Part shown: positions 2,465-26,118 of the stretch, piece after piece
How positions within the stretch are numbered: position 1 is the first letter of the stretch
Layout of the letters: each line of letters starts with the position of its first letter
Assembly: GCA_963682135.1 (NCBI GenBank)
Contig: OY821645.1
Coordinates: 2,080,001-2,144,000 of the forward strand
Direction of reading: 5' to 3'
Length of the DNA stretch: 64,000 nt
DNA from: Methanothrix sp.
GTDB lineage: Archaea > Halobacteriota > Methanosarcinia > Methanotrichales > Methanotrichaceae
Position numbers and translations under genes: made by a program
The notes under the pieces: generated by a model
The model's input: only the letters and a program-made list of their open reading frames with translations
Told to the model about the DNA's origin: nothing
Databases searched by the model: none

Positions 2465-5400
2465 TAGATCCCGTGCTGCAATGGCAAAGGCGACGGCTCA
2501 GGCAGCTTTTCAGAAGTCTCTCTTTCCTTCTTTGCATGCAGAATTTTGCTGCTGGGACTTTCCTTATGGCAGGATATTTGCGGGCCGCCGGCGCAGTTCT
2601 GTGCACCATCATCCTTGCAGCCTGCATGCTCCATGCATCCAACCCTGCCAGCCTCTCGCCCCCGAAGTGCTGCCATCTCCTCTGCTCGCGCATAATCACC
2701 CTGGGCCAGGAAGAGACGACTAAGATCCTGGTATAGGATCAGTGAATCATGCATTGCTCCCAAGCGGCCCATGGCAGCCAGCGCCTTTTGTAGCTTGACC
2801 AGGGCTTCGGGATAATCTTTGACCTGAAATGCCAGCCGCCCTAGATTGGCCATAGCTTTGGCTTCTTCATAGGGGTTGGACTGCATTCTTGCTTGGGATA
2901 AAGCCCTCTCAAAACGGCTCTTTCCCTCATGATAGCGCCCTTCTTTCTGATGGAGTTCTCCTTGCGTATTGTAAAGCTTGATATTGAGAATGGGATAATC
3001 GGTGCGAGATATGAGCGACTCCGCCCTGCTGAGATAGAATTTAGCCTCAGCCAGCCGCTCCTCCCGGATCAGGAACTGCGCCCTGGCCATATATCCCTCG
3101 CACAGATCCGGCAGAGCTTCCAGCTCCTCCAGGAGATCGATGGCCTGGCGGAAGTGATCTTCGGCCTCTTTTGCCTGGCCCTTCATGCCAAGAATGGTGC
3201 CCAGATTTAGCCTGGCCTGAGCAATGCATGGCGCAGCATCAAGCCTTTGAAAGATCTCCAGGGCCTCACCTAAGAGAGCGAAGGCTCCATCTAAATCACC
3301 TTTATCTTCAAAAACGAGGGCCATATTGAAACGGATCTGAGCCTGGCTGTAAATCTCCCCTACAGCCGAAAAGAGTTGCAGGCTCTCCTGGTAGCAGGAA
3401 AGAGCAGCCTCCCACTGGCAGCGATCTGCCAGAGAGCCAGCCAGTGCACTGAGCACCTCTGCCTGACCGCAGAGGTCTCCTTGTGCTTTCAACTCACCAA
3501 CCTGCTTGTAATAATCATCAAGATCATCGGGAATGTCGCTTCGGCCAGGACGTAGCATGTCGATATTGGACTGCATCTCCAGGGCGCCCTGCCCGTCTCC
3601 CAGGCGCCTAAAAATCTCCAGGCCCCTTAAGAAATGCTCCTTTGCTAAACTGCGCTCGCCTCTGCCATGGTAGAAGTTGCCCAGGTTGCCCAAAACCCGC
3701 GCCGCCCCGGCCATATCATCCAGCCTCTCGAAGAGATCCAGGCTCTCCTGGTAGCACTCTAAAGCCTGGGACCATTCACCTCTCTTGTAGCATAGGCTGG
3801 CCATATTGCTCAAGACGGATGCCTGGCTTTTGTCATCACCCACTCTGGCAAAACCATCGCAACTCTGGCGGTAGCTCTCAATAGCCTTCGTCCAATCGCC
3901 ACGCCGGTAACAGATATTGGCCAGATTGTTCCTGGCCACAGCCATGGAATACTCATCGCCCAGCCGCTCCAAGATTGTCAGGCTCTCCTCATAGTTTTGC
4001 AGAGCATGATCCCACTCACCCAGATCTGCCAGCAGATTTCCCCAAGAGCATAATACTGCAGCCAAAGCATCCGATTCTCCCAGGGAGCGAAGGGCATCCG
4101 ATGCCAGGACGTAGCTGGCCTCTGCCTCTTGCCATAGACCAAGCCGAAGAGATACATTGACAAGGCCATCCAAAGCTGCTGTTATGACCGGGGAGTTCTC
4201 CTGCCTCATTCCCATTTGGAGGCATTCCTGAAAATACTTCATAGCTTCCTTTAGCTCTCCCTTCTTGGCCTTTGCCCCGGCCAGACCAAGGAGCGACTTC
4301 CCCTCACTCCTCAGGTCGCTGACCTCTCGGAAGATAGCCAGGCTCTGCCGGTACATCTCCTCCGCCGTTTCCAGCTCGTCCTCCTGGTAATAGGCAGCTG
4401 CCAGATTGGCCAGAGTTGTGGCCACGCCATGCTGGTCATTTTGAGCGCGCTTGGCATCCAGACTCAAATTATAGCATAAAATAGCCTTACGTGTGTCTCC
4501 TAGATCTGAGTGCAGATTTCCCAGATTGTTTTGCGCCAGAGAAAAACCGTGAAGATCTCCCAGATCTTCATAAGCCGTAGCGGCCTGCTCAAAATATTCC
4601 CGAGCATAATCCCATTCGCCCTTGCACTGAGCTGTCAGACCTAAAGAAAGCTTAATACTCGCTTCGCCGGCCATATCAGTCCCGTCTCTGGCCGCGAGGC
4701 TTTTTTGCAGGTAATCTTCCGCAAGAGAGAACTCTCCTTTGCTCTGGTAGATAAGACCCAAATTAGCCTCTGTCTGGTACTTGCCCTGCTCATTGCCCAG
4801 CTGCGAGAAGATCTCTAAAGCGCGACCGTAGAAGTTTAGAGCATCCTCCTGTTCCCCATTTAAATGACATAAGCTTCCCAGATTGGATAGAGCTTCCGCT
4901 GCGGGAAGCCATTTTTCGTTCTGCATCAGCAGATCTGCGGCCCTCTGAAAACAGTCTTTTCCAGGGCAGTATTCCCGCCGGTCGGCATGAATCAGTCCCA
5001 TGCAGCTATATGCATCGGCAATTGCGCCGGGGTCATTTAACTGCTCTCTGATCTCCAGGCATTGCCGGGAGCATTGCAGAGCTTCATCAAGCCGATTTTG
5101 CATGCGATAATTGCCGGCAAGCAATACGAGCAGATCGGCAACGCTGCCCAGGTCGCCCTGACCATGCATGATCTCTCTGGCCCTCTCTAAATGACCCTCT
5201 GCCAGGACATAATCGCCTAAATCCAGGAAGCATTGCCCTATGCGACCCTGAGCACGAGCTGCCAGGAGACTGTCGCCTTCTTCTAAGGCCGGCAGGCTTT
5301 TTTCATAATGGATAGCAGCCTCATTATACCTGCCTTCCAGGAAAAAGAAATCCGCTAGTTGAAAGCGCATCCTGGCAGCGGACAAAATATCACCAATATC

Positions 5401-6192
5401 TTGCAGATAATGCAGGGCTTTTTCCAGGCAGCTTTCCACTCGATTCGCCGCCCCCGTAAGCTGATAGATAGAGGCAAGCGCTGCGAGCGATGCCGCCATT
5501 TTCCTGCGGTCCTGGACCTTCTCCCTCCCAGAGAGGCTCTTTTGATAGAATTCCTCCGCCTCGCCATAGTTGCCCTTTATCTGGCAGAGCTCTCCCAGGC
5601 AATGAAGCGCATCGGCCCGGCGGGAGTGATCTTCGCCATCGAGCAAGCGAAGCATTTTAGAATAGCACTGCTCCGCTTTTGACATATCCCCTCGCCGACA
5701 ACTGGCCCTGCCTAAATTTGCCAGAACGGTGCACATCAGAGAAGGACTCTTGTTCTCATCAAGGATCAACAAGGCTTTTTCATAGAACCGGCAGGCTCGA
5801 TCCCAGTCCTCATCATCGCTGCAAAGGCGTCCCATGCAATTGCAAACCAACGCCCTTCCCTCATCATCCCCCTGCGCCTGGGCCAGACGGGCACTCTTCT
5901 CAAAGTACTCCTCTGCTGCGTGGCGAAAGAAGAGGCTGGCGGCCAGTCTGCCTAAATTAAACCATGCAGTTGAGCTGCTACTGCCTGAGAGTGAATCAGC
6001 CAAGCCGGCAAGCATCCTTTGCATCTGATCCTCATCGGAGGAGAGTATGGACTCAATTAAGGGTGAAACGAGATCGGACCCCTGGAGTGAGAGCGCACGC
6101 AGTCGTTTTGGCTCGTAGCCTCCTGGCTGGCAAAGGACATCGGCCAGGATTCCTAGAGAGAAGACGCTGCTATCATCAGTCATCATTTCCAC
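2461..6192 (-). CDS. Large tetratricopeptide-repeat protein (about 40-aa TPR_12-like repeats)
   Basis: 1243 aa of repeating A..L.NLG..Y...G...A...Y..SL.I units. Confidence 0.9.
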   Translation of the reverse strand: MEMMTDDSSVFSLGILADVLCQPGGYEPKRLRALSLQGSDLVSPLIESILSSDEDQMQRMLAGLADSLSGSSSSTAWFNLGRLAASLFFRHAAEEYFEKSARLAQAQGDDEGRALVCNCMGRLCSDDEDWDRACRFYEKALLILDENKSPSLMCTVLANLGRASCRRGDMSKAEQCYSKMLRLLDGEDHSRRADALHCLGELCQIKGNYGEAEEFYQKSLSGREKVQDRRKMAASLAALASIYQLTGAANRVESCLEKALHYLQDIGDILSAARMRFQLADFFFLEGRYNEAAIHYEKSLPALEEGDSLLAARAQGRIGQCFLDLGDYVLAEGHLERAREIMHGQGDLGSVADLLVLLAGNYRMQNRLDEALQCSRQCLEIREQLNDPGAIADAYSCMGLIHADRREYCPGKDCFQRAADLLMQNEKWLPAAEALSNLGSLCHLNGEQEDALNFYGRALEIFSQLGNEQGKYQTEANLGLIYQSKGEFSLAEDYLQKSLAARDGTDMAGEASIKLSLGLTAQCKGEWDYAREYFEQAATAYEDLGDLHGFSLAQNNLGNLHSDLGDTRKAILCYNLSLDAKRAQNDQHGVATTLANLAAAYYQEDELETAEEMYRQSLAIFREVSDLRSEGKSLLGLAGAKAKKGELKEAMKYFQECLQMGMRQENSPVITAALDGLVNVSLRLGLWQEAEASYVLASDALRSLGESDALAAVLCSWGNLLADLGEWDHALQNYEESLTILERLGDEYSMAVARNNLANICYRRGDWTKAIESYRQSCDGFARVGDDKSQASVLSNMASLCYKRGEWSQALECYQESLDLFERLDDMAGAARVLGNLGNFYHGRGERSLAKEHFLRGLEIFRRLGDGQGALEMQSNIDMLRPGRSDIPDDLDDYYKQVGELKAQGDLCGQAEVLSALAGSLADRCQWEAALSCYQESLQLFSAVGEIYSQAQIRFNMALVFEDKGDLDGAFALLGEALEIFQRLDAAPCIAQARLNLGTILGMKGQAKEAEDHFRQAIDLLEELEALPDLCEGYMARAQFLIREERLAEAKFYLSRAESLISRTDYPILNIKLYNTQGELHQKEGRYHEGKSRFERALSQARMQSNPYEEAKAMANLGRLAFQVKDYPEALVKLQKALAAMGRLGAMHDSLILYQDLSRLFLAQGDYARAEEMAALRGREAGRVGCMEHAGCKDDGAQNCAGGPQISCHKESPSSKILHAKKERETSEKLPEPSPLPLQHGIY

Positions 6193-14614: not shown

Positions 14615-15610
14615 TCAGGCTTTTTCCACCCGGCCTATTCTCGGCCACTTTGAAAAGATGTCTCCTTGATCCAGCCAATCCCGGCTGAAGGTCTGGAGAT
14701 ACATCTGCTCCAACTTAGGCTGCCAGCCGCAACGGCCTTTGCGCGTCAGATCCTGGGCTCGTCTAATGTAGGCCTTCCTGGCGCTAGCAACGAGCCAGAG
14801 GTCGTACTGGTTCAAAGCAACATGCATTTCGCGACAGTAGCTGCATAAGAACCGATCGTAAAAAGAATCTACGTCCCAGCGATTTAGTCCAAAGAACTTG
14901 GCAGGAGGAAACTGCTTGATCAGCTCCAGACCGAATCTGAACCGGGCTAAATCCAGATGGGGAGTGCAAACGTAATCAAGCCTGGGAAAGTCGATGAGAA
15001 AAAGCCTCATTCTTTTCGTTCCAACATTTCGGGGATTGTCATCTTTGATTATAATGTTCCAGGATGTGAAATCTAAGAATGGTGTTACCATGGTCTTGAG
15101 ATTACACTGGTTTATCCGCTCCCGGCTTTCGGCAAGGGACTGGTTGATGTCGTCTTCATGCGCATTGATGTCTATGGTTAGAGGCTCACCCTCTCCCCGA
15201 CAAAAGAGTTCATGATATCTTGCCAAGGCAATTCCAGAAAGATCCGCAGCATAGCTGAGGTATTGGGTACTTGCCGGCCGGATCTCATGCAGCATATAGG
15301 AAAGATTTACACCCTGCACGTGCCTCATGGCCAGGATTCCATTCTCTGCATCTACAAAAAGGGGCTGTGGAGAGGAGACGACCCCATCTTTGCAGCTATT
15401 ATAAAAGCGTGATAAGTTGGCATACTCGAGAGCTACTTCGCGAGGTTGATAGTTGCGAGAGATCTTGACCACAATTTTGTCCCGAATTTGCCCCTTGCAA
15501 AGATCAAGCATAAAGATGCAGGAGTTTCGGCAGAAGATTGTCTTTTTGCCCGATGCCTTGAAACCAGGATACCGCTCTTCTATGTACTTTTGCACTTCGC
15601 CACGGTTCAT
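14615..15610 (-). CDS. Protein-kinase-like / aminoglycoside phosphotransferase-fold protein
   Basis: IVVK, E...L..F, LARYH, DFTSWNII and FLIDF..DLARF resemble APH-family motifs, but HxD is degenerate. Confidence 0.6.
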   Translation of the reverse strand: MNRGEVQKYIEERYPGFKASGKKTIFCRNSCIFMLDLCKGQIRDKIVVKISRNYQPREVALEYANLSRFYNSCKDGVVSSPQPLFVDAENGILAMRHVQGVNLSYMLHEIRPASTQYLSYAADLSGIALARYHELFCRGEGEPLTIDINAHEDDINQSLAESRERINQCNLKTMVTPFLDFTSWNIIIKDDNPRNVGTKRMRLFLIDFPRLDYVCTPHLDLARFRFGLELIKQFPPAKFFGLNRWDVDSFYDRFLCSYCREMHVALNQYDLWLVASARKAYIRRAQDLTRKGRCGWQPKLEQMYLQTFSRDWLDQGDIFSKWPRIGRVEKA

Positions 15611-15993: not shown

Positions 15994-17112
15994 GTGCCCC
16001 AGGTAAGCCTGATTATCCCCACCAGAAATGAACAAGAGACGATCTGCGAATGCATCCAAAGAGCCCAGCAGGTCTTCAGAGAGATGGGCCTTTCGGGCGA
16101 AATTCTGGTTGCAGACAGCTCGAACGACGAGACGGCAGCAATTGCAGATTCATGCGGGGCAAAGGTTATCAAACCTGCAAAGTTGGGATACGGAAATGCC
16201 TACCTGTCCGGGCTTGCACAGGCGGAAGGGGAATACATTGTCTTCATGGACGGTGATCTGACCTACGATCCCAAAGCCATTGCAGATATGATAGTCATCC
16301 TGCAAAGCGGCAATTATGACCTGGTTATAGGTTCGCGACTCAAGGGAAAGATTCTTCCCGGCGCCATGCCTGCCCTTCATCGTTATATTGGAAATCCAGT
16401 TCTCACCTGTATTTTGAATACCCTCTTTTCCAGCCGCATCTCTGATGCCCACTGCGGCCTTCGTGCCATTAGGCGAGATGCCCTAAAAAAACTGAATCTC
16501 AGATCAGGAGGAATGGAGTTCGCCTCCGAGATGCTCATTGAAGCTGTCTGCCGAGATCTGAGAGTTGCAGAAGTTCCCATTACCTACTCCCCTCGCAAAG
16601 GAGTCTCAAAGCTTCATTCCATCACCGACGGCTGGAGACATTTACGTTTCATGATGCTCTACCGACCGGTTCCATTTCTTCTCGTTCCTGGACTTTTGGT
16701 ACTTATTTTCGGGCTGGCCCTGTTCGTGGGAGTGTATCTGCAAGGTGGATCAAGGATGCATTCTCTGATCCTGGGCGGCCTGCTGGCAATCATAGGTTAC
16801 CAGATGCTATTGGCGGGACTGTATTTTGAAGCATTTGGAGCAGCCTATGGCCTCCCTCGCTCGGGAAGAATTAAAAAGATGATCAGCTACCACTCTCTAG
16901 AGAAAGAGCTTTTCATCGGCACAGTCTTGCTTGCCGCAGGTGGCCTGCTCGGCCTGAGAGTTCTGATGAGCTGGGGAGTTTCCGGCTTTGGTGCGCTGGA
17001 TGCAGCATCCAGCGCCATGATGGCCATGATCTTTTCCATCCTGGGAATCCAGACCATATTTTCCGGAATGTCCATAAGCCTGCTCTTGCTCAATAATGGG
17101 AACCAAGAGTAG
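15994..17112 (+). CDS. Glycosyltransferase family 2 (DPM-synthase-like) with C-terminal transmembrane helices
   Basis: IIPTRNE, GYGNA, MDGDLTYD, DAHCGLRA and MEFASEM motifs, plus a hydrophobic C-terminus. Confidence 0.92.
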   Translation: MPQVSLIIPTRNEQETICECIQRAQQVFREMGLSGEILVADSSNDETAAIADSCGAKVIKPAKLGYGNAYLSGLAQAEGEYIVFMDGDLTYDPKAIADMIVILQSGNYDLVIGSRLKGKILPGAMPALHRYIGNPVLTCILNTLFSSRISDAHCGLRAIRRDALKKLNLRSGGMEFASEMLIEAVCRDLRVAEVPITYSPRKGVSKLHSITDGWRHLRFMMLYRPVPFLLVPGLLVLIFGLALFVGVYLQGGSRMHSLILGGLLAIIGYQMLLAGLYFEAFGAAYGLPRSGRIKKMISYHSLEKELFIGTVLLAAGGLLGLRVLMSWGVSGFGALDAASSAMMAMIFSILGIQTIFSGMSISLLLLNNGNQE

Positions 17113-17153
17113 TGCAAGTGCACTATTCATCGATGGCTATTCGCAGGCTACCC

Positions 17154-17306
17154 TCAGATCCGGGTCTTTCGAGGTCGCTCATTGGTTATTCCGCCCTTAA
17201 TTTTGCTAAATATCGGCGCGTCAGACTTATTCTTCTGCGGTTTGGAGGGATCGTGCTTGCCAGGCCCGTCGTTGGGCATTCCCTTGGCACCTTTTTTCTT
17301 GCTCAT
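17154..17306 (-). CDS. Small basic protein (50 aa), absent from the ORF track
   Basis: Reads MSKKKGAKGMPNDGPGKHDPSKPQKNKSDAPIFSKIKGGITNERPRKTRI*, with an AGGTGA Shine-Dalgarno just upstream of the ATG. Confidence 0.6.
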   Translation of the reverse strand: MSKKKGAKGMPNDGPGKHDPSKPQKNKSDAPIFSKIKGGITNERPRKTRI

Positions 17307-17482
17307 CTAATATTCACCTTCATGACTCGTCTCTGCGTCATATCCACCTCTTCCCTTAAATACTAGTCAGCTTACCGACAGGCTGCCCGACAAGTAAACC
17401 TCTTAGTGACGCAGGGCAAATCTGCAAGAATCGGACAACCTCGCTCAACCGATTTAACTACCACATAAAAAAAAGTGAATTA

Positions 17483-17507
17483 AGCGCTGAAATCATGCCT
17501 CAGCGCT
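17483..17507 (-). terminator. Hairpin downstream of paralog A
   Basis: Inverted repeat AGCGCTGA...TCAGCGCT, followed on the minus strand by a T-run. Confidence 0.6.
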
Positions 17508-17525
17508 ATTTTTTCCCATTGATTC

Positions 17526-18248
17526 TCAGACGCAAGGCAGCCAGTCTACGCTGATGGAACCGCAGGTGGAGTTACCCCAGAGCTGGATGAACTTCTCGAT
17601 GGAGAAGACACCAGTCAGGTCCTCAACAGATCTGCCGTACTCAGCATGGCGGCCCTTGAGCTGTGGATCTGCAGTTGGATCGCGGGAGATCCAGCCGATG
17701 TGAGCGACGCCTATGACGTTGCTGTTCAGGTTAGCTTCGAGAACGCCTGTGCAGCAAGCCGGGACGTTAGTCAGAGTGTTTTTGTTGTATCCCCTGGTCT
17801 TGATCTCGGTGGTCTTTTGCAGGTGCTCAGCATGAGTGTACATCTCAGTAAGCACAGCGCCTATCTTGTAGTTTTGCACGCAGAGCTTATCCACCCATTT
17901 CTGGTCGTAAGTGCCGGTCTGATATGAGACGGGCATGTACTCCAGCTCCTGCTCAGAGGTGAAGTTGATGTAGTCCATGGGATCTGACCCGGTCGGCCAA
18001 ACACAAGTTAAGTCCGCAGGTTGCCTCTCAGCTTCAAGCTCAATTCTAGAAGTGATGACATTCCCTGATCCGGACTGCTTTTCCACCAGCTTTTGCCCAT
18101 TAAAGCCGCTTTGCGTGGAAATGACAATCTCCAGGCTTCTGTACCCCACTCCTTTTACAGACGATTTCTCGTACATGTAATTGGCAGCGCCTGCCATGCC
18201 GACTAGTGCCATGACAATAACCGCTAGAACAATAAATTCTCTTTTCAA
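17526..18248 (-). CDS. Secreted Cys-rich beta-strand protein, paralog A (candidate sheath/envelope protein)
   Basis: Signal peptide KREFIVLAVIVMALVGMAGA. Near-identical framework to paralogs B-D, ending ISVDWLPCV. TTG start preceded by GGAGG. Confidence 0.85.
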   Translation of the reverse strand: MKREFIVLAVIVMALVGMAGAANYMYEKSSVKGVGYRSLEIVISTQSGFNGQKLVEKQSGSGNVITSRIELEAERQPADLTCVWPTGSDPMDYINFTSEQELEYMPVSYQTGTYDQKWVDKLCVQNYKIGAVLTEMYTHAEHLQKTTEIKTRGYNKNTLTNVPACCTGVLEANLNSNVIGVAHIGWISRDPTADPQLKGRHAEYGRSVEDLTGVFSIEKFIQLWGNSTCGSISVDWLPCV

Positions 18249-18419
18249 TCCACAACAACCTCCTCTAGCCCGGGTACCCTTAATCAGGGCATTTTTTAAA
18301 AGTCCAGGCATTTACTCTCCAGATACCCTAGCACCCGAAGACGAATTATCTGGAGGCTATTTCAAGGTTTTGCTGCCATATTCCATAGATTCAATCGCGA
18401 AAAAAAGGAATGCTCATGC

Positions 18420-19598
18420 CTACTTGCCGAATGAATTAAGCCGGTCCACGAAATCGCTACATGAGCTACTTAAGCAGGGGCTGGCAAAGCTAGGACTGAT
18501 TGGCACCGGCACGTTAATGCTCGGTGCTTTCAGACAATCGCCCTCCTGACATGGCGACTTAGATTTTGCGACATCCCGGAAGAGTATTCTCCGATTGATC
18601 TCAAAGGACCCGAAATATTCCTCAAATTCCTTCAGATTTTTTTGTCCAGGGACCACCTGCTTGGCATCTATCAGGTAATATCCCGTAAAGTTATCTGCCG
18701 TCTTAAACTCAGCCGTCTTTTTTAGGGATCCGGTCTGATGCAGTGTAAAATCCTGATCCTTGAACTCCATCTGTGAAACATCATAGCTCTCCCGGACCTT
18801 GGCACCCACTCCACCAAAGACCGCAGAACTCTTGAAGTTCTCAGTTCCTACCAGTGCGTCTCCAAGAGAGACGGCATTATAGTTGTCAACTGCATCCTTT
18901 TCCTGAAAATTGGCATTTTTGCCCAATGCCTTATCCACCAGGTATTCGTTCTTTACCAGGGCATCCACGCTGCCGGAAAACAGCACACTCTTGGTGGACT
19001 TGATGCCGGAGTTCATGGACCGGAGGTCTTTGTCGATCTGAAACTGTCCCGAGCCGCTCACAGAGGTCTCTGAGGCGTAGTCGAATGACTGCACTTTAAA
19101 TTTAGCATCTCTTTGCCCAGAGCTGCGGCATTTGGCAGAGGCCTCCACTGCGAATCTGTACTCACCAGCTACAGCGTTCGTGTCCGGCGAAACTTGCAGG
19201 GACAAAAAACGAGAAACTCCTGCCGGAATGGTCACGGGAGTGCTCGTCCAGCTAAACCATTCAAACGGGCAGACCTTCGGATTGACACTTACTTGTGCCT
19301 CCACTTCAGTCTTGCCGTCGTTACTTATCGTAACCACATAGTCCAGTGGTTTGCCCGGAGTCGTATATGATTTATCAGGCTCCGACTCAGGTCCAGTAAG
19401 GCCGATGCTTACAGTAAGGGCCCCAAAATCGCCCGAACATGGGCTGGGTAGAAATGCAGGCAAAGAGGTGGATGTGAAACTGGTCCCAAGGCCAGTCGAT
19501 GCTTCACCAGGTGCCATGCCTGAATCCTCAACTGTGGCTTGTGCCAGGGCTGCGGTAAGGATGAAAAGAATCATTACCCAAATCATCTGTAGTTTCAT
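18420..19598 (-). CDS. Secreted protein with an Ig-like (NEW3/CARDB-like) N-domain and a beta-strand domain related to paralogs A-D
   Basis: Signal peptide; YVVTISNDG and AGEYRFAVEA; ETSVSGSG and EEYFGSFEINRRILF motifs; Cys-rich tail. Confidence 0.8.
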   Translation of the reverse strand: MKLQMIWVMILFILTAALAQATVEDSGMAPGEASTGLGTSFTSTSLPAFLPSPCSGDFGALTVSIGLTGPESEPDKSYTTPGKPLDYVVTISNDGKTEVEAQVSVNPKVCPFEWFSWTSTPVTIPAGVSRFLSLQVSPDTNAVAGEYRFAVEASAKCRSSGQRDAKFKVQSFDYASETSVSGSGQFQIDKDLRSMNSGIKSTKSVLFSGSVDALVKNEYLVDKALGKNANFQEKDAVDNYNAVSLGDALVGTENFKSSAVFGGVGAKVRESYDVSQMEFKDQDFTLHQTGSLKKTAEFKTADNFTGYYLIDAKQVVPGQKNLKEFEEYFGSFEINRRILFRDVAKSKSPCQEGDCLKAPSINVPVPISPSFASPCLSSSCSDFVDRLNSFGK

Positions 19599-19652
19599 GC
19601 GAACCCCCCGAAATATTACTGAAAAAAAAGAAGAACTGTAGGCTATTTCAGC

Positions 19653-20447
19653 CTAGCAGTCGATGCCTTCGCACGGTGCGCGAATTCTATCCGGCACCGG
19701 GTTCTCATGGAACTTAATGGTCTTCTCGGCTTCGAACACACCCGTGAACATCTCGTGAGCCTTTATGTCCTTGTAGAATATCTTGTGCCAGGTTGCGTCG
19801 GTGCCCCAGGTACCATTGAAGGAGTTCTTGGTCTCGAGACCAATCAGATGGGACGGAACATATACCCCATTGCTGGCAGTCATGAGATCCTGGACTGCAG
19901 CTGTGTCTCGGCCTGCACTCTTGAGCAAGCCCGGCAGATCCTCAGGTTTGCCGTAGGGTGTCTCATAAGGCGTGGTTGAGGCAAAGAACGCAGTCTGATC
20001 CTGTTCCATCTCATTTACAGAGAAGAGTTCCTGCACATTGGCGCCAATGCCTCCGTAGAAGGCCTTGGAGTTGAGGAGCTTTCCACCGGTCAAGGGGGTC
20101 TCGCCCGCATAGGTCAACTTCGTCTGCTGGATGAGATTAAGTGCGGATTCATTTCCACCATTTACAGAGGACACATTCCTCTTCAGCTTATCGGCATTCT
20201 GAGAATATGCGGTCTCCTGGTCCAGCTCGAGATCTCCGTCACCATTCATGGTGTTGAAATACTCAAGGGCGATTTTTTTGTCGATTACCGATGTGCTGAC
20301 ATCGATAATTCCCGTTCCGGATACCTTATGTGATTCACAAAACTGTTCATACTGTACAGGTGGAACTATGGGCGGATTGGCCATCACAGTACCACTTAGC
20401 CCCAAAAGGGCAATTGCGAGTACTACTACTCCTACTACTCCCTTCAT
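19653..20447 (-). CDS. Secreted beta-strand protein distantly related to paralogs A-D
   Basis: Signal peptide; ESHKVSGTG and HEMFTGVFEAEKTIKF motifs; C-terminal PCEGIDC. Confidence 0.82.
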   Translation of the reverse strand: MKGVVGVVVLAIALLGLSGTVMANPPIVPPVQYEQFCESHKVSGTGIIDVSTSVIDKKIALEYFNTMNGDGDLELDQETAYSQNADKLKRNVSSVNGGNESALNLIQQTKLTYAGETPLTGGKLLNSKAFYGGIGANVQELFSVNEMEQDQTAFFASTTPYETPYGKPEDLPGLLKSAGRDTAAVQDLMTASNGVYVPSHLIGLETKNSFNGTWGTDATWHKIFYKDIKAHEMFTGVFEAEKTIKFHENPVPDRIRAPCEGIDC

Positions 20448-20707
20448 GCTACATTCACCCCCGATGTTAATGCAACAAATTGTTATCCCTTTTATATTAG
20501 ATTGCGTTATCGTTTTTGTTGTACGATTATCTAACTACAGAAATACTCTGACGTTTTTATTTGATATAAATCTATCTGTTATTTGCACCAGAAAAAGCAG
20601 ATCCGCACTCAAGGTGGCACAGAGGTATCTTACCTGAAGCCGGATTTTGCATCCTGGGAGGAAAATCCTGCGCAGCATATCTAAAAAAAGTATAATTGAT
20701 CAATACA

Positions 20708-20825
20708 CACGCAGGGCAGCTAGTCAACACCAATTGAGCAGCTTGTAGAGTTGGCTGAGGGCAGTATGGACTTATCGAGAACACCGGTGCAGCAGGCAGA
20801 ACGGCTTTGCGTCTCAGCTTCAAGC
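20708..20825 (-). pseudogene. Collapsed remnant of a fifth paralog
   Basis: One minus frame reads LEAETQSRSACCTGVLDKSILPSANSTSCSIGVD*LPCV. This joins three non-adjacent pieces of the paralog (LEAE / ACCTGVL / NST..I.VDWLPCV), with TGG changed to TAG and no start codon. Confidence 0.7.
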
Positions 20826-20950
20826 GGTCAAAATTCGGCCTGAGTGAAAATGATCCGCGCGACAGGAACAATTCAAAAATAGAAATTTGTGCTCCTGGCC
20901 TTTCGAGCCCGAAGCCCAAATATCAAATGAGTTACAGTTTCTGGATCTAT

Positions 20951-21727
20951 CTACACGCAGGGCAGCCAGTCAACGCTGATTGCGCCGCATGTGGAGTTGC
21001 CCCAGAGCTGGATGAACTTCTCGATGGAGAAGACGCCAGTCAGGTCCTCGACAGATCTGCCGTACTCAGCATGGCGGCCCTTGAGCTGGTCATCAGCCTT
21101 GGGATCGCGGGAGATCCAGCCGATGTGGGCAACGCCGATGACGTTGCTGTTCAGGTTAGCCTCGAGAACACCGGTGCAGCAAGCCGGGCAGCTTCCGTCG
21201 ACGCTATTTGCGGACATGTTGCCGTAGCCTCTGGTCTTGACCTCGGTGGTCTTCTGCAGGTGCTCTGCATGGGTGTACATCTCAGTGAGTACAGCGCCGA
21301 TTCTGTAGTTCTGTACGCACAGCTTCTCTACCCACTTCTGGTCGTAGGTGCCGGTCTGGTAAGATACGGGCATGTACTCGAACTCAGCTTCCTTGGTGAA
21401 GTTGATGTAGTCCATGGGGCATGCGGTGCCGGTTGGCCAGGCACAGTTAATAACCCACTTTCCGTTAACCCAGCCGATTGGGGTGTAGTCCCTGTTGAGC
21501 TGCCTCTCGGCTTCCAGCTCAGTCCTCTCGGTGATGACGTTACCGGATCCGGACTCCTTCTCTACCAGCTTCTGGCCGTTAAAGCCAGTCTGGGTGGAAA
21601 TGATCATCTCTACGTTCTTGTATCCTACGCCCTTGACCGATGCCTTTTCGTACATGTAGTTGGCTGCACCGGCAGTGGCTACTACGGCCATGGCGATAAT
21701 AACCAAAACTGCTATTAGTTTTCTCAT
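20951..21727 (-). CDS. Secreted Cys-rich beta-strand protein, paralog B
   Basis: 258 aa from MRKLIAVL, with a GGAGGTGG SD. Nearly identical to paralog C. The upstream ORF extension to 21952 is probably leader RNA. Confidence 0.9.
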   Translation of the reverse strand: MRKLIAVLVIIAMAVVATAGAANYMYEKASVKGVGYKNVEMIISTQTGFNGQKLVEKESGSGNVITERTELEAERQLNRDYTPIGWVNGKWVINCAWPTGTACPMDYINFTKEAEFEYMPVSYQTGTYDQKWVEKLCVQNYRIGAVLTEMYTHAEHLQKTTEVKTRGYGNMSANSVDGSCPACCTGVLEANLNSNVIGVAHIGWISRDPKADDQLKGRHAEYGRSVEDLTGVFSIEKFIQLWGNSTCGAISVDWLPCV

Positions 21728-21966
21728 TTCTTTCCCACCTCCACTATATGAGGATCCAAGGCTGCTATTCAACAGCAACAAATGATCCATTAGTACATCA
21801 CTCTGATCGGATCGCAAAGTCCCTCCTCGATTACACGGGATCGTTTCATCAGAAGGATGAAACCGCTCGATTTCAGCCTTGCATTTAGCATAGGCGGAAA
21901 GTGCGTCAAATGCCACCCTATCCAGCGTGAGGCGCCCCATCCAATGATTCAATTAGATTGTATTTC

Positions 21967-22012
21967 TAAGGCACAATCCTTTTGGTTGGGTTAATAGGAT
22001 ATAAACTTATCG
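21967..22012 (-). promoter_or_regulatory. BRE/TATA and initiator region for paralog B
   Basis: Minus strand CGATAAGTTTATAT, followed about 23 nt later by TTGTGCCTTAG. The same layout occurs upstream of C and D. Confidence 0.65.
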
Positions 22013-22207
22013 AGCATGAAAAAGGCAACTTTTTTTAGAATATATGTGCACCCATTGCTTGTTTTCAACAATTGCAGGACAAGACTTCCCTTGATCCGAA
22101 AATCTCGGCCTTTAATAGTATCTATTAAATGTGATCGCATTTGAGGCAATAGCACCCAAACATCCAATATTTTAAAATCTCAAAAAGATAAATAAATACA
22201 AACTAAA

Positions 22208-22230
22208 CTCCGGGTTTTGTGAGCCCGGAG
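22208..22230 (-). terminator. Hairpin downstream of paralog C
   Basis: CTCCGGG...CCCGGAG inverted repeat followed by T-rich sequence on the minus strand. Confidence 0.65.
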
Positions 22231-22268
22231 CTTAGGCTTTTGTAGTGTTGTACTGAATTTTGGCCTAT

Positions 22269-23045
22269 CTACACGCAGGGCAGCCAGTCAACGCTGATTG
22301 CGCCGCATGTGGAGTTGCCCCAGAGCTGGATGAACTTCTCGATGGAGAAGACGCCAGTCAGGTCCTCGACAGATCTGCCGTACTCAGCATGGCGGCCCTT
22401 GAGCTGGTCATCAGCCTTGGGATCGCGGGAGATCCAGCCGATGTGGGCAACGCCGATGACGTTGCTGTTCAGGTTAGCCTCGAGAACACCGGTGCAGCAA
22501 GCCGGGCAGCTTCCGTCGACGCTATTTGTGGACATGTTGCCGTAGCCTCTGGTCTTGACCTCGGTGGTCTTCTGCAGGTGCTCTGCATGGGTGTACATCT
22601 CAGTGAGTACAGCGCCGATTCTGTAGTTCTGTACGCACAGCTTCTCTACCCACTTCTGGTCGTAGGTGCCGGTCTGGTAAGATACGGGCATGTACTCGAA
22701 CTCAGCTTCCTTGGTGAAGTTGATGTAGTCCATGGGGCATGCTCTGCCGGTTGGCCAGGCACAGTTAATAACCCACTTTCCGTTAACCCAGCCGATTGGG
22801 GTGTAGTCCCTGTTGAGCTGCCTCTCGGCTTCCAGCTCAGTCCTCTCGGTGATGACGTTACCGGATCCGGACTCCTTCTCTACCAGCTTCTGGCCGTTAA
22901 AGCCAGTCTGGGTGGAAATAATCATCTCTACGTTCTTGTATCCTACGCCCTTGACCGATGCCTTTTCGTACATGTAGTTGGCTGCACCGGCAGTGGCTAC
23001 TACGGCCATGGCGATAATAACCAAAACTGCTATTAGTTTTCTCAT
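22269..23045 (-). CDS. Secreted Cys-rich beta-strand protein, paralog C
   Basis: 258 aa with an AGGAGGG SD. Differs from B by only two residues. Confidence 0.9.
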   Translation of the reverse strand: MRKLIAVLVIIAMAVVATAGAANYMYEKASVKGVGYKNVEMIISTQTGFNGQKLVEKESGSGNVITERTELEAERQLNRDYTPIGWVNGKWVINCAWPTGRACPMDYINFTKEAEFEYMPVSYQTGTYDQKWVEKLCVQNYRIGAVLTEMYTHAEHLQKTTEVKTRGYGNMSTNSVDGSCPACCTGVLEANLNSNVIGVAHIGWISRDPKADDQLKGRHAEYGRSVEDLTGVFSIEKFIQLWGNSTCGAISVDWLPCV

Positions 23046-23221
23046 TTCGTTCCCTCCTTATTCATTAGGATCGAGAGCTGATAAAAAGCAATGATCCCTA
23101 ATGCATCACCTCGATAGGACAGCAGAGTTCATTATAGCACCTGAAAGATAATTTGTATGCTATCCAATCCAACGTGAGATGCCTGAACCCATGTATCTGA
23201 TCGGGCAATTTATAACATTTC

Positions 23222-23268
23222 TCAGGCACAAACTCTAGCAATTAGGCTAATGACATATAAATTTATCG
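23222..23268 (-). promoter_or_regulatory. BRE/TATA and initiator region for paralog C
   Basis: Minus strand CGATAAATTTATAT, followed about 24 nt later by TTGTGCCTGAG. Confidence 0.65.
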
Positions 23269-23360
23269 AGCGAGAACTGGTTTTCGACAATGCGGATAAG
23301 CCAAAAAGGCACACCGCTATTTGAATAGTATTTGACGAAAAACAGCCAAAAATATAATTT

Positions 23361-23388
23361 GGACTCCGGGCCTTTGGAGCCCGAATCC
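23361..23388 (-). terminator. Hairpin downstream of paralog D
   Basis: Imperfect inverted repeat GGACTCCGGGC...GCCCGAATCC, homologous to the hairpins after B and C. Confidence 0.55.
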
Positions 23389-23419
23389 AAGATCAATTAT
23401 GTTACAGTTCTTGATCTAT

Positions 23420-24211
23420 CTACACGCAGGGCAGCCAGTCAACGCTGATTGCGCCGCATGTGGAGTTGCCCCAGAGCTGGATGAACTTCTCGATGGAGAA
23501 GACGCCAGTCAGGTCCTCGACAGATCTGCCGTACTCAGCATGGCGGCCCTTGAGCTGGTCATCAGCGTTTGGATCGCGGGAGATCCAGCCGATGTGGGCA
23601 ACGCCGATAACGTTGCTGTTCAGGTTAGCCTCGAGAACACCGGTGCAGCAGGCTGGGCAGCTTCCATCAATAGCATCTGTGGAGCTGGTATCAAACTTGC
23701 CGTAGCCTCTGGTCTTGACCTCGGTGGTCTTCTGCAGGTGCTCAGCGTGGGTGTACATCTCAGTGAGTACAGCGCCGATTCTGTAGTTCTGTACGCACAG
23801 CTTCTCTACCCACTTCTGGTCGTAGGTGCCGGTCTGGTAAGATACGGGCATGTACTCGAACTCAGCTTCCTTGGTGAAGTTGATGTAGTCCATGGGGCAT
23901 GCTCTGCCAGTTGGCCAGGCGCAGCTGATATCGTACGTTTTAGTCTTAGCATTCCAGCCAATCGGGGTGTAGTCCCTGTTGAGCTGCCTCTCGGCTTCCA
24001 GCTCAGTCCTCTCGGTGATGACGTTGCCGGATCCGGACTCCTTCTCTACCAGCTTCTGGCCGTTAAAGCCAGTCTGGGTGGAAATGATCATCTCTACATT
24101 CTTGTATCCTACGCCCTTGACCGATGCCTTTTCGTACATATAGTTGGCTGCACCGGCCATGCCTACTACGGCCATGGCGATAATAACCAAAACAGCTATT
24201 AGTTTTCTCAT
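23420..24211 (-). CDS. Secreted Cys-rich beta-strand protein, paralog D
   Basis: 263 aa with the same framework as B/C but different loop 1 and loop 2 sequences. GGAGGTGG SD. Confidence 0.9.
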   Translation of the reverse strand: MRKLIAVLVIIAMAVVGMAGAANYMYEKASVKGVGYKNVEMIISTQTGFNGQKLVEKESGSGNVITERTELEAERQLNRDYTPIGWNAKTKTYDISCAWPTGRACPMDYINFTKEAEFEYMPVSYQTGTYDQKWVEKLCVQNYRIGAVLTEMYTHAEHLQKTTEVKTRGYGKFDTSSTDAIDGSCPACCTGVLEANLNSNVIGVAHIGWISRDPNADDQLKGRHAEYGRSVEDLTGVFSIEKFIQLWGNSTCGAISVDWLPCV

Positions 24212-24410
24212 TTCTTTCCCACCTCCTTAGATTACCATAAACGCTTCAGGATCTCAGCCATCAGTTGTGGCCCAAATCCCTGGCACCACGTTGACAAAGA
24301 TTTCCTGGCCCTTGCCCAGGGCATTGACCCGGCAAGAACCAACGTATTGGAACTCTGTCACGAGGAGTACCTGACTCACATGCTTCTCCGCTCATATTTG
24401 AGTATTTTGC

Positions 24411-24457
24411 TCAGGCACAACCCCAATCAACCAGCTTATGGAGTATAAATATTTCCG
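24411..24457 (-). promoter_or_regulatory. BRE/TATA and initiator region for paralog D
   Basis: Minus strand CGGAAATATTTATA, followed about 23 nt later by TTGTGCCTGAG. Confidence 0.6.
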
Positions 24458-24767
24458 GATTTTTGGAGAAAATCGAGATCAATCGATCCACCCAATGTGA
24501 GTTCGGAAACCATGCGCCAACTAGCATGTCCTTTTAGGCTGGCAATTGCGACCCTACAAGAAGTCGCGCCGCATTCGACCGGTTGACTTCAGACGGAAGA
24601 TGCCGCAAGTTCACAATCAGATGCTAATGCCCCAAAACCTAGGTATCCGACAAAGATCAATGCTTTGGGCCAGTTTTTTTGGCTTGGTCGGCGAGGCTTG
24701 CGATAACAAGAACACGAACCTAAGAGAAATCAAGTAGGCATCCGGAGAAAAATCGTTGACAATAGAA

Positions 24768-24842
24768 TGCTCCGGCCGGGATTTGAACCCGAGTCTTCGG
24801 CTTGAAAGGCCGAAATGATTGGCCGGGCTACACTACCGGAGC
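24768..24842 (-). tRNA. tRNA-Glu (TTC)
   Basis: Reverse complement GCTCCGG...TTCGGC-CTTTCAA-GCCGAA...GGTTCAAATCC...CCGGAGCA forms a cloverleaf. No encoded CCA. Confidence 0.95.
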
Positions 24843-24940
24843 AATTTTGCCGTCTTAAAGCCAGGCAAGCCATGCACTGGCCTTCACCTCATAGATATGA
24901 ACGAATATATCTACGTTTCCAATGGATTATAAGTTGGAAG

Positions 24941-25013
24941 TAGTCCCGGGCGGATTCGAACCGCCGTCGCGGGCTCCAAAGGCCCTCAGGATTGACCGCT
25001 ACCCCACGGGACT
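24941..25013 (-). tRNA. tRNA-Gln (TTG)
   Basis: Reverse complement AGTCCCG...GGGC-CTTTGGA-GCCC...GGTTCGAATCC...CGGGACTA forms a cloverleaf. Confidence 0.93.
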
Positions 25014-25125
25014 ATGATTTTTGTGCCATTTCTTTGTTTCTTCTTAACTGGCATCAACTGATTTTATGCCGGGCGAGTGTTATCCGCATAAGATATATAT
25101 GGCCTTTCCCGGAGGAGCAAAGAAG

Positions 25126-26118
25126 ATGAAACTTCTCACCAAGGCGCATATGAGCCAGAGAAGGCTAATTGAGATCCTGCGCGTTATCGAAAATACCAGC
25201 ATCCCGATTGGAGCCAGAGCGATCTCAGATTGCCTGAGCAGTCGTGGATATGACTTGGGAGAGAGGGCTGTGCGCTACAACCTCAAGATCCTGGACGAGC
25301 TGGGTTTCACCAAAAAGAAAGGTTACAGCGGCAGGGTGCTCACCCCTCTGGGGTCAAGGGAGCTGAACGACGCACTGGTCGACGATCGGATCGGTTTTGT
25401 TAATACCAGGATTGAAGAGTACATGTTCAAGACCAGCTTCGATCCGAAAACCAGTCAAGGTGATGTAATCGCTAATACCAGCATCATAGATAAATCAAAT
25501 GCGGAAGAGGTCTTCGAGATACTGGGGAACGCTTTTGAAGCTGGCTATTCAATAAGCCGTCGCGTGCTCATCCTGGATGAGGAAGAAAGCATCTCCAATC
25601 TTGAGATTCCAAAAGGAGCTTTGGGAATAGCAACCCTGTGCAGCATCACTCTGGACGGCATGCTCATGAAAAGGGGGATTCCAGTCCTCACCAGCTTCGC
25701 GGGGCTGGCAGAAGTCACCGAAAGACGAACCGTTGATTTCACAGACCTCATTGCCTATGCCGGATCGTCCCTTGATCCCATTAAGGTTTTTATGGGGCGC
25801 AGGGTGACGAGAGTTGCTGATGCCATCTTCAAGGGTAACGGAACCGTACTGGCCAACGTGAGAGAGGTGCCCGTCGCGGCGGCAACGCTTGTACGCGCGC
25901 TTTTGGATGATGCTCGAAACGCGGGCCTGTGTGGGCTCATAAGAATTGGTGAGCCGTCCGAGCCCGTGCTGGGCTGCCCTGTGGGCTCAGGTAAGATCGG
26001 CATAGCATTTTATGCGGGAGTCAATGGGGTGGTGGCGGCAGAGGAGACGGGAATAAAGATTAAGACGGCGCCCATATCCATTCTGATCGATTACGCCAAG
26101 ACCCATGAGCTGAAATGA
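25126..26118 (+). CDS. nrpR: NrpR-family regulator (wHTH + one NRD/DUF128 domain)
   Basis: IEILR.I, IGARAIS, GERAVRY.LK.LDE.G.T.K.GY.GR.LT, IATLCSITLDG and I.Y.GSSLDP motifs. Start is approximate. Confidence 0.8.
   Translation: MKLLTKAHMSQRRLIEILRVIENTSIPIGARAISDCLSSRGYDLGERAVRYNLKILDELGFTKKKGYSGRVLTPLGSRELNDALVDDRIGFVNTRIEEYMFKTSFDPKTSQGDVIANTSIIDKSNAEEVFEILGNAFEAGYSISRRVLILDEEESISNLEIPKGALGIATLCSITLDGMLMKRGIPVLTSFAGLAEVTERRTVDFTDLIAYAGSSLDPIKVFMGRRVTRVADAIFKGNGTVLANVREVPVAAATLVRALLDDARNAGLCGLIRIGEPSEPVLGCPVGSGKIGIAFYAGVNGVVAAEETGIKIKTAPISILIDYAKTHELK

Follow-up and report, generated by a model that had tools for sequence, protein, structure and literature searches.

Genes A to D, four minus-strand genes in the 64,000-nucleotide stretch of Methanothrix sp. 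DNA analysed here (the window), probably belong to the main chromosomal locus for SH sheath proteins, a reading to which we give a probability of about 0.7 and in which the encoded subunits have a polymerising framework and variable loops, and the C-type copies (B, C and D) are homogenised by gene conversion. All four encode secreted Cys-containing paralogs. Alignment confirmed a constant framework with two variable sites in four signal-peptide genes, as claimed by an earlier reading of the DNA letters (the sequence-only reading), and the loop 1 and loop 2 sequences quoted there match the alignment letter for letter. Its description of the genes as an array stands for the four paralogs but not for a strict tandem arrangement, as two other genes (X392 and Y264) and a decayed remnant lie between A and B (Table 1).

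Table 1. Features of the SH-family locus (window positions).
Feature	Position	Strand	Description
A	17526-18248	-	A-type SH-family gene, 240 aa from likely start TTG 18248; distal locus end
A loops	L1 17976-18020, L2 17748-17792	-	short loops
X392	18420-19598	-	conserved secreted 392-aa protein
Y264	19653-20447	-	conserved secreted 264-aa protein, C-terminus PCEGIDC
Remnant	20707-20797 (about)	-	decayed further C-type copy, contains stop codon
Hairpin after B	about 20885-20911	-	terminator-like, equivalent of D hairpin
B	20951-21727	-	C-type SH-family gene, 258 aa; L1 21413-21499, L2 21173-21229
Upstream block of B	21969-22005	-	TTTATAT (TATA-like), then TTGTGCCTTAG ~25 nt downstream; ~270 nt before ATG
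Hairpin after C	about 22200-22227	-	terminator-like, equivalent of D hairpin
C	22269-23045	-	C-type SH-family gene, 258 aa; L1 22731-22817, L2 22491-22547
Upstream block of C	23224-23261	-	equivalent of B block
Hairpin after D	23361-23383	-	terminator-like, CGGGCTC..GGCCCGGAG, then T-run
D	23420-24211	-	C-type SH-family gene, 263 aa; L1 23891-23983, L2 23642-23707
Upstream block of D	24413-24449	-	equivalent of B block

The longest open reading frame (ORF) of gene A is 17526-18311, and its likely true start is the TTG given in Table 1, which is preceded by GGAGGT; in 5 of the 8 A-type orthologs listed, the ORF opens at most 2-5 codons away. Gene A is a conserved single-copy ortholog, found at the same position in other genomes, and A-type genes (n = 15) have an L1 of 14-16 aa and an L2 of 11-17 aa. 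The ORF of gene B extends to 21952, and the homologous ATG, with its ribosome-binding site (RBS), is at 21727. Each C-type gene has its own TATA-like box, RBS-like motif and terminator-like hairpin, and the position of the TATA-like blocks far upstream of the three ATGs implies long 5' leaders. In two studies, RNA libraries yielded contigs that match the ORFs of B, C and D as well as two unique leaders, with 0 differences over 23004-23131 and 24207-24302. The remnant joins a 3' end that is 78% identical to B nt 704-775 to an ACCTGVL segment (B nt 544-566). X392, found at the equivalent position in 24 of the 27 listed loci from other genomes, has a weak NPCBM_assoc (Ig-like) match at residues 80-154 and a C-terminal part homologous to Y264, which is itself a member of a second multi-copy family in the same genome and weakly resembles the C-terminal half of SH-family proteins. 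Attempts to assign Y264 and X392 gave hhalign probabilities of 6% and 2% and an AF2 model with a pLDDT of 33.7; the two are conserved companions in the SH locus. Outside the window, the same genome holds five more full or half-size family members and one fragment, the half-size paralogs being devoid of the N-terminal edge strand.

Across 123 genes from 42 assemblies, the lengths of the framework segments are fixed (F1 56, F2 61 and F3 73 aa, the last being 75 aa in 3 genes) and all length variation falls at two sites, L1 (14-87 aa) and L2 (11-119 aa). The median amino-acid identity is 0.947 in the framework, at a dN/dS of ~0.055, versus 0.35 in L1 and 0.41 in L2, such that across Methanothrix genomes the loops are indeed more variable than the framework. 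The Cys content of the two loops covaries: an L1 with 1 Cys is paired with an L2 with 2 Cys (35/35) and an L1 with 2 Cys with an L2 with 3 Cys (78/78), a pattern with little phylogenetic support, as the supported branches provide 3 independent pairs (p = 0.25), and the best tree, itself affected by conversion, has 9 changes. Total Cys is 6 or 8 in 116 of the 123 proteins. The loops were also considered as targets of a diversity-generating retroelement, a candidate that we rejected: the 99.87%-complete genome gave no RVT_1 match (control genomes responded), the repeats within 17000-25000 are the gene copies themselves and nothing else, and the loops differ by indels, with B/C changes (C>G, C>A and G>A) that are not of the adenine-specific retroelement pattern.

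Sequence comparison and modelling together support the assignment of A-D to the SH sheath-protein family of Medvedeva, Borrel & Gribaldo (ISME J 2024, PMC11576556). The family is described there as forming multi-copy clusters in all Methanotrichales, with neighbours up to 100% identical, without conserved gene context across orders, with variable "cap" domains and with a core of two beta-sheets of six antiparallel strands like that of Methanospirillum hungatei SH. In the window there are four copies, B and C being 99% identical. The N-terminus, MRKLIAVLVIIAMAVVATAGA followed by ANY, has a charged start and then a hydrophobic stretch, by inspection a signal peptide, and the AF2 model has a helix spanning residues 2-18 before the first strand. 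A signal peptide, a modelled all-beta core, multi-copy near-identical neighbours, variable caps, Ig-like extended relatives, virus copies and predicted cross-beta oligomers are common to A-D and the Methanotrichales SH proteins, and nothing sets A-D outside the family. Relatives of large size contain Big_9 and Cadherin domains, in the manner of the "sheath adhesins" of that paper. Four Methanothrix virus SH-like proteins in its Supplementary Data 1 contain DWLPC and NSNVIG (4 occurrences each) and, in a comparison made by eye rather than by an alignment tool, share the framework start AANYMYEK; the IMG/VR viral loci retrieved show 59-84% identity to C, and 13 of the 14 viral copies with anchor motifs (missing in the other 12 listed) have an F1 of 56, an F2 of 61 and an F3 of 73 or 71 aa. 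While the SH family and its clustering were already known, with the gene-conversion pattern a modest addition, the strictly fixed framework lengths, the two insertion sites, the mosaic signatures, the locus order conserved within Methanothrix and the inter-loop covariation in Cys count go beyond that description.

The divergence between copies supports the view that gene conversion or recombination among neighbours maintains the uniformity of their frameworks, as the sequence-only reading had proposed. Exactly 4 of 777 nt distinguish B from C, namely one synonymous change plus ACC>AGA (T101R, loop 1) and GCA>ACA (A173T, loop 2), and their flanks are unalignable; the earlier claim of about four differences, with both amino-acid changes in the loops and diverged flanks, is thereby upheld. 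Similarity among B, C and D begins ~17 nt upstream of the ATG and ends just past the stop, the terminator hairpin excepted. Between B and D, the two loop regions hold 31 of the 42 differences, dS is 0.057 in the framework versus 0.79 in the loop regions, and the longest identical run is 155 nt (Sawyer-type permutation P = 0.0025, indicating clustered differences). Similar trends were observed across Methanothrix genomes: neighbouring copies have a framework dS of 0.01-0.07 and synonymously deeper loops, same-locus C-type pairs (n = 59) have a median framework dS of 0.158 versus 0.808 in 5648 between-genome pairs, and the nearest relative is the neighbour for 44 of 60 genes. In seven mosaic neighbour pairs, chosen for alike frameworks and differing loops, synonymous differences at conserved-residue codons were higher in the differing loops than in the framework in 7/7 cases (pooled, 35/185 versus 47/1320; P = 8e-13), although alignment within such loops may match up residues that are not homologous and thereby overstate the synonymous counts.

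Could these patterns have arisen by recent tandem duplication and fast, selection-driven loop change, with no gene conversion? Medvedeva et al. interpret near-identical SH neighbours as recent duplications (PMC11576556), the location of both B/C amino-acid changes in the loops agrees with this account, and the variation in copy number between genomes (1-5), along with the decayed copy in the window, indicates that copies are both gained and lost. However, duplication would have carried the flanks along, and the confinement of B/C similarity to the ORF therefore counts against it, as does the synonymous excess in the loops, both between B and D and in the mosaic pairs, which would not be expected from point selection at the amino-acid level. 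We therefore consider duplication followed by selection unlikely, and note that alike frameworks combined with older loops are better explained by gene conversion or mosaic recombination than by simple recent duplication.

Structure prediction provided additional support for a polymerising framework. AF2 modelled C with moderate confidence (pLDDT 72.4, pTM 0.69) as seven long strands, with low confidence in both variable sites and in the C-terminal tail. The multimer modelling suggested by the sequence-only reading, conducted with three copies of mature C, yielded antiparallel edge-strand pairing, in which residues 220-244 at the C-terminal end of one subunit line up with residues 22-45 at the N-terminal end of the next (contacts 229:36, 233:33, 237:28 and 223:43). 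The trimer scored 0.73 (runs 0.73, 0.78 and 0.73; best of 3 controls 0.00), a measure of model confidence rather than of binding, and one for which the 0.73 mark was reached by 20/30 one-chain solved pairs and 1/23 solved single chains in a calibration whose set-up differs from that of the trimer run, made with our own alignment and three copies. At least 90% of contacts were reproduced across runs, and the partner had a pLDDT of at least 75. The models thus support a predicted self-association of mature C as a continuous cross-beta array, and since the last strand of one subunit pairs with the first of the next, an open-ended polymer is possible.

The proposal that these proteins are sheath subunits is supported indirectly, in that they are of the same family as the SH and SH-like proteins and give a head-to-tail trimer model; a proteomic or imaging placement of the SH family in Methanothrix sheaths was not found in the literature consulted. 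The suggested link to MspA (Mthe_1069 of Methanothrix thermoacetophila PT), a 60.9-kDa, highly expressed protein proposed as a sheath component, is not supported: compared by size only, MspA is about twice as large as A-D (240-263 residues), and PMC11576556 considers that it was probably misidentified as the main sheath subunit, reporting it from only a few Methanotrichales strains, with no predicted dimerisation and no likeness to Methanospirillum SH. Nevertheless, MspA is the protein named by the only published Methanothrix sheath MS/MS, on M. thermophila (Dueholm et al. 2015), a result that, like the missing placement, leaves room for the SH family being a secreted, self-polymerising protein outside the sheath wall, such as a plug or spacer, a hoop connector, an adhesive fibre of the surface or a minor sheath constituent. 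In keeping with such roles, SH proteins with small caps have been proposed as hoop connectors or plug supports (PMC11576556), and a match of the locus genes to the highly transcribed Mthe_0667/0668/0625 is not established. Several observations speak against it: (i) the virus proteins listed as SH-like belong to the A-D family, some being 75-94% identical to host SH proteins (PMC11576556); (ii) all sampled Methanothrix assemblies contain the family, with 472 confirmed stretches in species-representative genomes; (iii) RNA-library contigs match the locus as described above; and (iv) the edge-strand pairing in the trimer model is continuous, as expected for rings. A role outside the wall thus seems improbable to us, and a wall subunit remains the preferred reading.

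The setting of the genes argues that the copies are real and chromosomal. The genome is a single 3.04-Mb contig, and unique spacers at 21727-22294, 23019-23442 and 19764-20973 were recovered with 0 differences in contigs from two runs of two studies, contigs that stop at the repeated ORFs, with none spanning a whole copy. The locus follows a conserved order (nrpR / C-type x1-5 / Y264 / X392 / A-type / GT2), found in whole or in part in 27 loci of other genomes, with one remnant here in addition to the C-type copies adjoining nrpR, and its neighbours are housekeeping genes (NrpR, S6e, GGR and GT2). While Methanothrix viruses carry SH-family members (32 IMG/VR loci; according to PMC11576556, 75% of Methanothrix viruses have SH-like genes) and short-read contigs end at the repeated ORFs, the conserved order from nrpR to the GT2 gene, the absence of viral genes from the 13 ORFs of the window that were scanned near the locus, the single-contig assembly and the exact spacers make it very improbable that the copies are prophage-derived egress factors or an assembly artefact.

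Taken together, our results suggest that A-D would each encode a secreted all-beta protein of ~25 kDa whose framework segments form long antiparallel strands and whose subunits, as modelled, may join last strand to first into an open-ended cross-beta polymer, the sheath ring or hoop. Two fixed insertion points, placed by strand order at one end of the sheet, would carry the loops, with covarying Cys at their bases, and together the loops may form an outward "cap", for which the sequence-only reading had suggested putative roles in virus evasion or partner attachment. The C-type frameworks are, on this reading, homogenised by conversion or recombination between neighbours, probably because all copies must fit one polymer, while the loop segments, as the synonymous sites show, keep older, independently assorting sequences; A is an old single-copy, short-loop member. 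More speculatively, and with odds that we put well below even, the C-type array might be a combinatorial surface-variation system of the outermost layer of a methanogen. Conversion would then preserve one polymerisation core, allowing the copies to co-assemble in the same hoops, while the two cap loops, possibly disulfide-joined at their bases, would be kept diverse and independently reshuffled from copy to copy, with sheath-binding viruses or attached episymbionts as the selective pressure; the half-size paralogs could serve to cap the ends of the polymer.

Flagellins and type IV pilins are filament subunits that likewise combine a conserved polymerising core with a hypervariable exposed part. 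A comparable protein is M. hungatei SH (WP_011449234.1), a secreted amyloid-like beta protein that a cryo-ET model shows in rings stacked into hoops, with its cap facing outward and cysteines linking the rings (PMC10593813). The edge-to-edge strand continuation predicted for C by the trimer model is analogous, whereas the M. hungatei cap, with six helices and one sheet, folds as a domain of its own rather than being made of two loops (PMC10593813), and that protein has two Cys versus 8 in mature C. Gene conversion also generates surface variation in TprK; such systems differ in having silent cassettes and a single expression site, none of which is evident at the SH locus, and in facing a host immune system, which is not involved for Methanothrix. 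By analogy, what the SH locus would have in common with flagellins, pilins and TprK-like systems is a strongly constrained core, variation restricted to defined exposed segments and non-reciprocal recombination between paralogs.

Between 17.5 and 24.2 kb the minus strand carries six secreted-protein genes head to tail, four of which, A (A-type) and B, C and D (C-type), are clear paralogs. Their alignment confirmed what a sequence-only reading had described, namely a near-invariant framework (segments F1, F2 and F3) interrupted by two places at which sequence and length vary (loops L1 and L2), and the loop sequences quoted in that reading match the alignment exactly. The paralogs also stand as an array of four, though not as a pure tandem, as A is separated from B by two other secreted genes, X392 and Y264, and by what is left of a decayed fifth C-type copy. 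Gene A itself holds, but its start is most likely TTG 18248, behind GGAGGT, instead of that of the longest ORF, because the ORFs of five of the eight A-type orthologs (those printed) open only 2–5 codons upstream. The remnant matches B nt 704–775 at 78% identity over its 3' end, which is fused directly to an ACCTGVL segment; it contains an internal deletion and a stop codon and is a sign of copies being lost from the array.

Features of the locus and its surroundings, in window coordinates
Feature	Position	Strand	Description
1243-aa protein	2461-6192	minus	almost all TPR repeats
331-aa protein	14615-15610	minus	without Pfam match; adjoins the A-type gene
GT2 glycosyltransferase	15994-17112	plus	adjoins the A-type gene
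A	17526-18311 (longest ORF)	minus	A-type SH-family gene
X392	18420-19598	minus	between A and B
Y264	19653-20447	minus	between A and B
Remnant of fifth C-type copy	about 20707-20797	minus	just 3' of B, between A and B
B	20951-21727	minus	C-type SH-family gene
C	22269-23045	minus	C-type SH-family gene
D	23420-24211	minus	C-type SH-family gene
tRNA gene	24768-24842	minus	between D and nrpR
tRNA gene	24941-25013	minus	between D and nrpR
nrpR	25066-26118		divergent

The near-identity reported for B and C was reproduced: they differ at 4 of 777 nt, one change being synonymous, both amino-acid changes fall in the loops (ACC>AGA, T101R, in loop 1; GCA>ACA, A173T, in loop 2), and the flanks have diverged. 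B, C and D become similar at the ribosome-binding site GGAGGTGGGAAAGAAATG, some 17 nt ahead of the ATG, and cease to be so a few bases past the stop codon, the terminator hairpin excepted. The genome is a single contig (3,043,341 bp, 99.87% complete), and the unique spacers at 21727–22294, 23019–23442, 19764–20973 and 24197–24400 recur with 0 differences in contigs of two public runs from two studies; these short-read contigs end at the repeated ORFs, none spanning a whole copy, and they are support for real copies, not proof. The same layout with 1–5 copies was found again in other genomes. The runs are available as assembled contigs only, the depth of which gives neither gene ranking nor copy number, and the higher depth of the shared framework piece (404 versus about 140 in run X1) hints at three copies at best.

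For a comparison across genomes, 131 distinct full-length family genes were drawn from 75 loci of species-representative genomes and our own genome, and the 123 (from 42 assemblies) with all four anchor motifs were kept, the 8 without them being excluded. F1 measured 56 aa and F2 61 aa in all 123 genes, and F3 73 aa (75 aa in three), with L1 ranging from 14 to 87 aa and L2 from 11 to 119 aa. The loops, of which 109 distinct L1 and 103 distinct L2 sequences were counted, are far more variable than the framework, as had been proposed: median pairwise identity was 0.35 for L1 and 0.41 for L2 versus 0.947 for the framework, in which 81 of 188 columns are invariant and dN/dS averages 0.055. Two framework N-glycosylation sequons (NFT and NST) occur in 121 of the 123 members. 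Our own genome encodes three more full-length members (L007, L006 and L004, at G000:C1:2022095-2023000, 2941076-2941924 and 242552-243367) with much longer loops (L1 up to 66 aa, L2 up to 41 aa), that of L007 being rich in W, P and D.

The cysteine count is 6 or 8 in 116 of the 123 proteins: the framework holds three, and the loop bases hold the others. An L1 with one cysteine was always accompanied by an L2 with two (35/35) and an L1 with two by an L2 with three (78/78), with no mixed state among these cases. This covariation suggests that the extra pair links the loop bases to each other by a disulfide. Along the framework tree the state switches 9 times, both loops changing together each time; as supported branches hold just 3 independent pairs (p = 0.25), we regard the covariation as a lead, not a result.

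Synonymous divergence differs sharply between framework and loops for B–D and C–D.

Synonymous divergence (dS) between the four paralogs
Pair	Framework dS	Loop-region dS
B-C	0.008	0.019
B-D	0.057	0.79
C-D	0.066	0.74
A vs B, C or D	about 0.9 (dN 0.058)	at least 1.05 (saturated for A-D)

The two loop regions hold 31 of the 42 differences between B and D, the longest identical run being 155 nt (permutation P = 0.0025). Beyond the window, median framework dS was 0.158 for same-locus C-type pairs (n = 59) versus 0.808 for 5648 between-genome pairs, and the nearest framework relative was a neighbour for 44 of the 60 genes of multi-copy loci. Seven neighbour pairs from seven genomes, chosen for like frameworks and unlike loops, have almost identical frameworks (0–10 differences per segment) and differ in one loop only or in both, and the loops therefore assort independently. 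At codons for conserved residues, synonymous differences were more frequent in the differing loops than in the framework in 7/7 pairs (pooled, 35/185 versus 47/1320, P = 8e-13; for B–D in the window, 9/36 versus 7/189, P = 1.3e-4), with the proviso that alignment within loops may pair non-homologous residues. Because of this synonymous excess, and because the B/C identity is limited to the ORF, the pattern fits a framework homogenised by gene conversion, as the sequence-only reading had supposed, or recombination that brought in diverged loop segments; a recent duplication with later point changes fits less well. A DGR mechanism is ruled out, as the genome contains no reverse transcriptase.

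The layout of the locus is itself conserved. Gene order is repeated, wholly or in part, in 27 loci of other Methanothrix genomes: a divergent nrpR, 1–5 C-type genes, Y264, X392, one A-type gene and, on the other strand, a GT2 glycosyltransferase. The A-type genes (15 found) have an L1 of 14–16 aa and an L2 of 11–17 aa, with loop identities between genomes of 0.67 and 0.59. Beside the A-type gene, the GT2 is kept in 6 and the 331-aa protein in 3 of the 27 loci listed. Y264 and X392, 69–97% and 59–85% identical to their orthologs and free of hypervariable sites, are homologous to each other (hhalign 96%, E = 1.7e-9) and represent a second secreted family kept in the locus across species, with paralogs in our own genome at 1022527–1023375, 2743878–2744744 and 1382338–1383048. 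Its proteins end in C..(G)(I)DC and have the TGxFExEK motif in common with the SH (sheath-forming) family, to the C-terminal half of which Y264 and X392 bear a weak likeness (hhalign probability 6% and 2%); X392 gave only a sub-threshold NPCBM_assoc/DUF11 match in Pfam and NCBIfam, and an AlphaFold2 model of Y264 reached a pLDDT of only 33.7. The pair may form a further SH clade or be partners in assembly. A scan of 13 window ORFs around the locus turned up housekeeping genes (dodecin, NrpR, ribosomal protein S6e, geranylgeranyl reductase) and no viral gene.

B, C and D are each preceded, 210–272 nt before the ATG, by a TATA-like TTTATA(T/C) and then TTGTGCCT(G/T)AG, and a sigma-70 and terminator scan, which does not model archaeal promoters, returned no more sites than shuffled sequences. 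The ORFs and the unique leaders 23004–23131 and 24207–24302 are matched with 0 differences by contigs from the RNA libraries of two studies, in which DNA carry-over is possible; such contigs are nearly absent over X392, which is not evidence of its silence.

AlphaFold2, run with a 42-sequence alignment, gave an all-beta model of a family protein with moderate confidence (pLDDT 72.4, pTM 0.69), in which the signal-peptide helix is followed by long strands (24–44, 52–74, 105–117, 132–140, 145–168, 187–207 and 221–242) and confidence is low at 94–100 (within L1), 170–184 (within L2) and in the C-terminal tail. From the strand order, both loops and both termini would lie at the same end of the sheet. 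Multimer modelling, recommended at the outset, paired edge strands in a three-copy prediction of mature C with a score of 0.73 (runs 0.73, 0.78, 0.73) versus 0.00 for the best of three controls; 20 of 30 proteins solved as one-chain pairs and 1 of 23 solved as single chains attained this score, a calibration unlike our prediction, which used its own alignment and three copies. Contact agreement between runs was at least 90% and partner pLDDT at least 75. The confident contacts (229:36, 233:33, 237:28, 223:43, 240:27) place the last strand of one subunit antiparallel to the first strand of the next, and all listed interface residues are in the framework, unlisted ones being uncertain, not excluded. 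Such pairing would continue the sheet open-endedly, as in published ring models, and the prediction supports self-association of C as model confidence, not measurement. Two half-size members of our own genome (L009 and L010, 166 and 157 aa, at G000:C1:655217-655657 and 612168-612584) each have their own signal peptide and only the C-terminal half of the framework; because the N-terminal edge strand, through which the chain grows in the trimer model, is missing from them, they could be polymer end-caps. Similar short forms occur among representative clusters, e.g. P0157 and P0174.

The SH class was defined to comprise proteins homologous in structure to the sheath protein of Methanospirillum hungatei (Medvedeva, Borrel and Gribaldo, ISME J 2024; PMC11576556), and by sequence A–D are members of this family, because the published viral SH-like proteins and the viral members from our own searches share their framework. 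By eye, Methanothrix virus SH-like proteins printed in Supplementary Data 1 (PMC11576556) have the A–D framework from AANYMYEK to DWLPC. IMG/VR holds 32 viral loci encoding members 59–84% identical to C; 14 of the 26 listed copies have the anchor motifs, 13 of these with an F1 of 56, an F2 of 61 and an F3 of 73 or 71 aa, and their loops are mostly short. Relatives in a large protein database numbered 2321 at E <= 0.001, the best 120 being 79–99% identical and, where named, Methanothrix proteins; they form only 208 clusters at the 50% level, and the family is therefore narrow. No family was returned for A, C or D by Pfam or NCBIfam, the PDB sequence search gave nothing meaningful, Foldseek against PDB and BFVD found no match at E <= 0.001 (the top rows being long-hairpin pore proteins with TM below 0.2), and the ESM Atlas no usable match. 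The MspA link drawn earlier was not supported: MspA (Mthe_1069) has a mass of 60.9 kDa, and the 2024 paper (PMC11576556) considers that taking it for the main sheath subunit was probably a misidentification. The M. thermoacetophila PT locus, sought for mapping to Mthe_0667/0668/0625, was not among the best 80 loci in two genome scans. Giant relatives of the SH family also exist: in P0184 (1224 aa) Big_9 and Cadherin-like domains separate the framework pieces, and a subtilase is fused to them, whilst in P0131 (1442 aa) and P0179 (724 aa) framework motifs recur as several permuted repeats.

Methanothrix ranks among the major acetoclastic producers of methane, and its sheath is the surface met by viruses, syntrophic partners and episymbionts. 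Taken together, the pattern first seen in the window is real and its reading was largely correct, and a testable evolutionary picture emerges, of a polymerising core uniform between copies, two defined sites to which all length variation is confined and whose history is separate and older, and a locus layout kept across the genus. The loops may face outward and may have a role in virus or partner interaction. The framework/loop map guides the choice of residues for labelling, mutation and antibodies in studies of sheath assembly, virus adsorption and partner attachment, and Y264 and X392 are conserved companions that merit inclusion in sheath proteomics.

The gene family and its clustering have been published since 2024, and the locus itself is not a discovery. 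As far as the available part of that paper goes, all Methanotrichales have SH proteins, a genome having as many as 40 copies; the genes form one main cluster with neighbour identity up to 100%; the proteins have diverse outward "cap" domains, to which Ig-like domains are added in some; SH-like copies are found in most Methanothrix viruses; and the term "gene conversion" is not used (PMC11576556). A literature search returned no paper joining "sheath protein", Methanothrix and "gene conversion". To this published system the present analysis adds a quantitative account of the two-site architecture, evidence of conversion and mosaicism, a locus order that is conserved, and the cysteine covariation.
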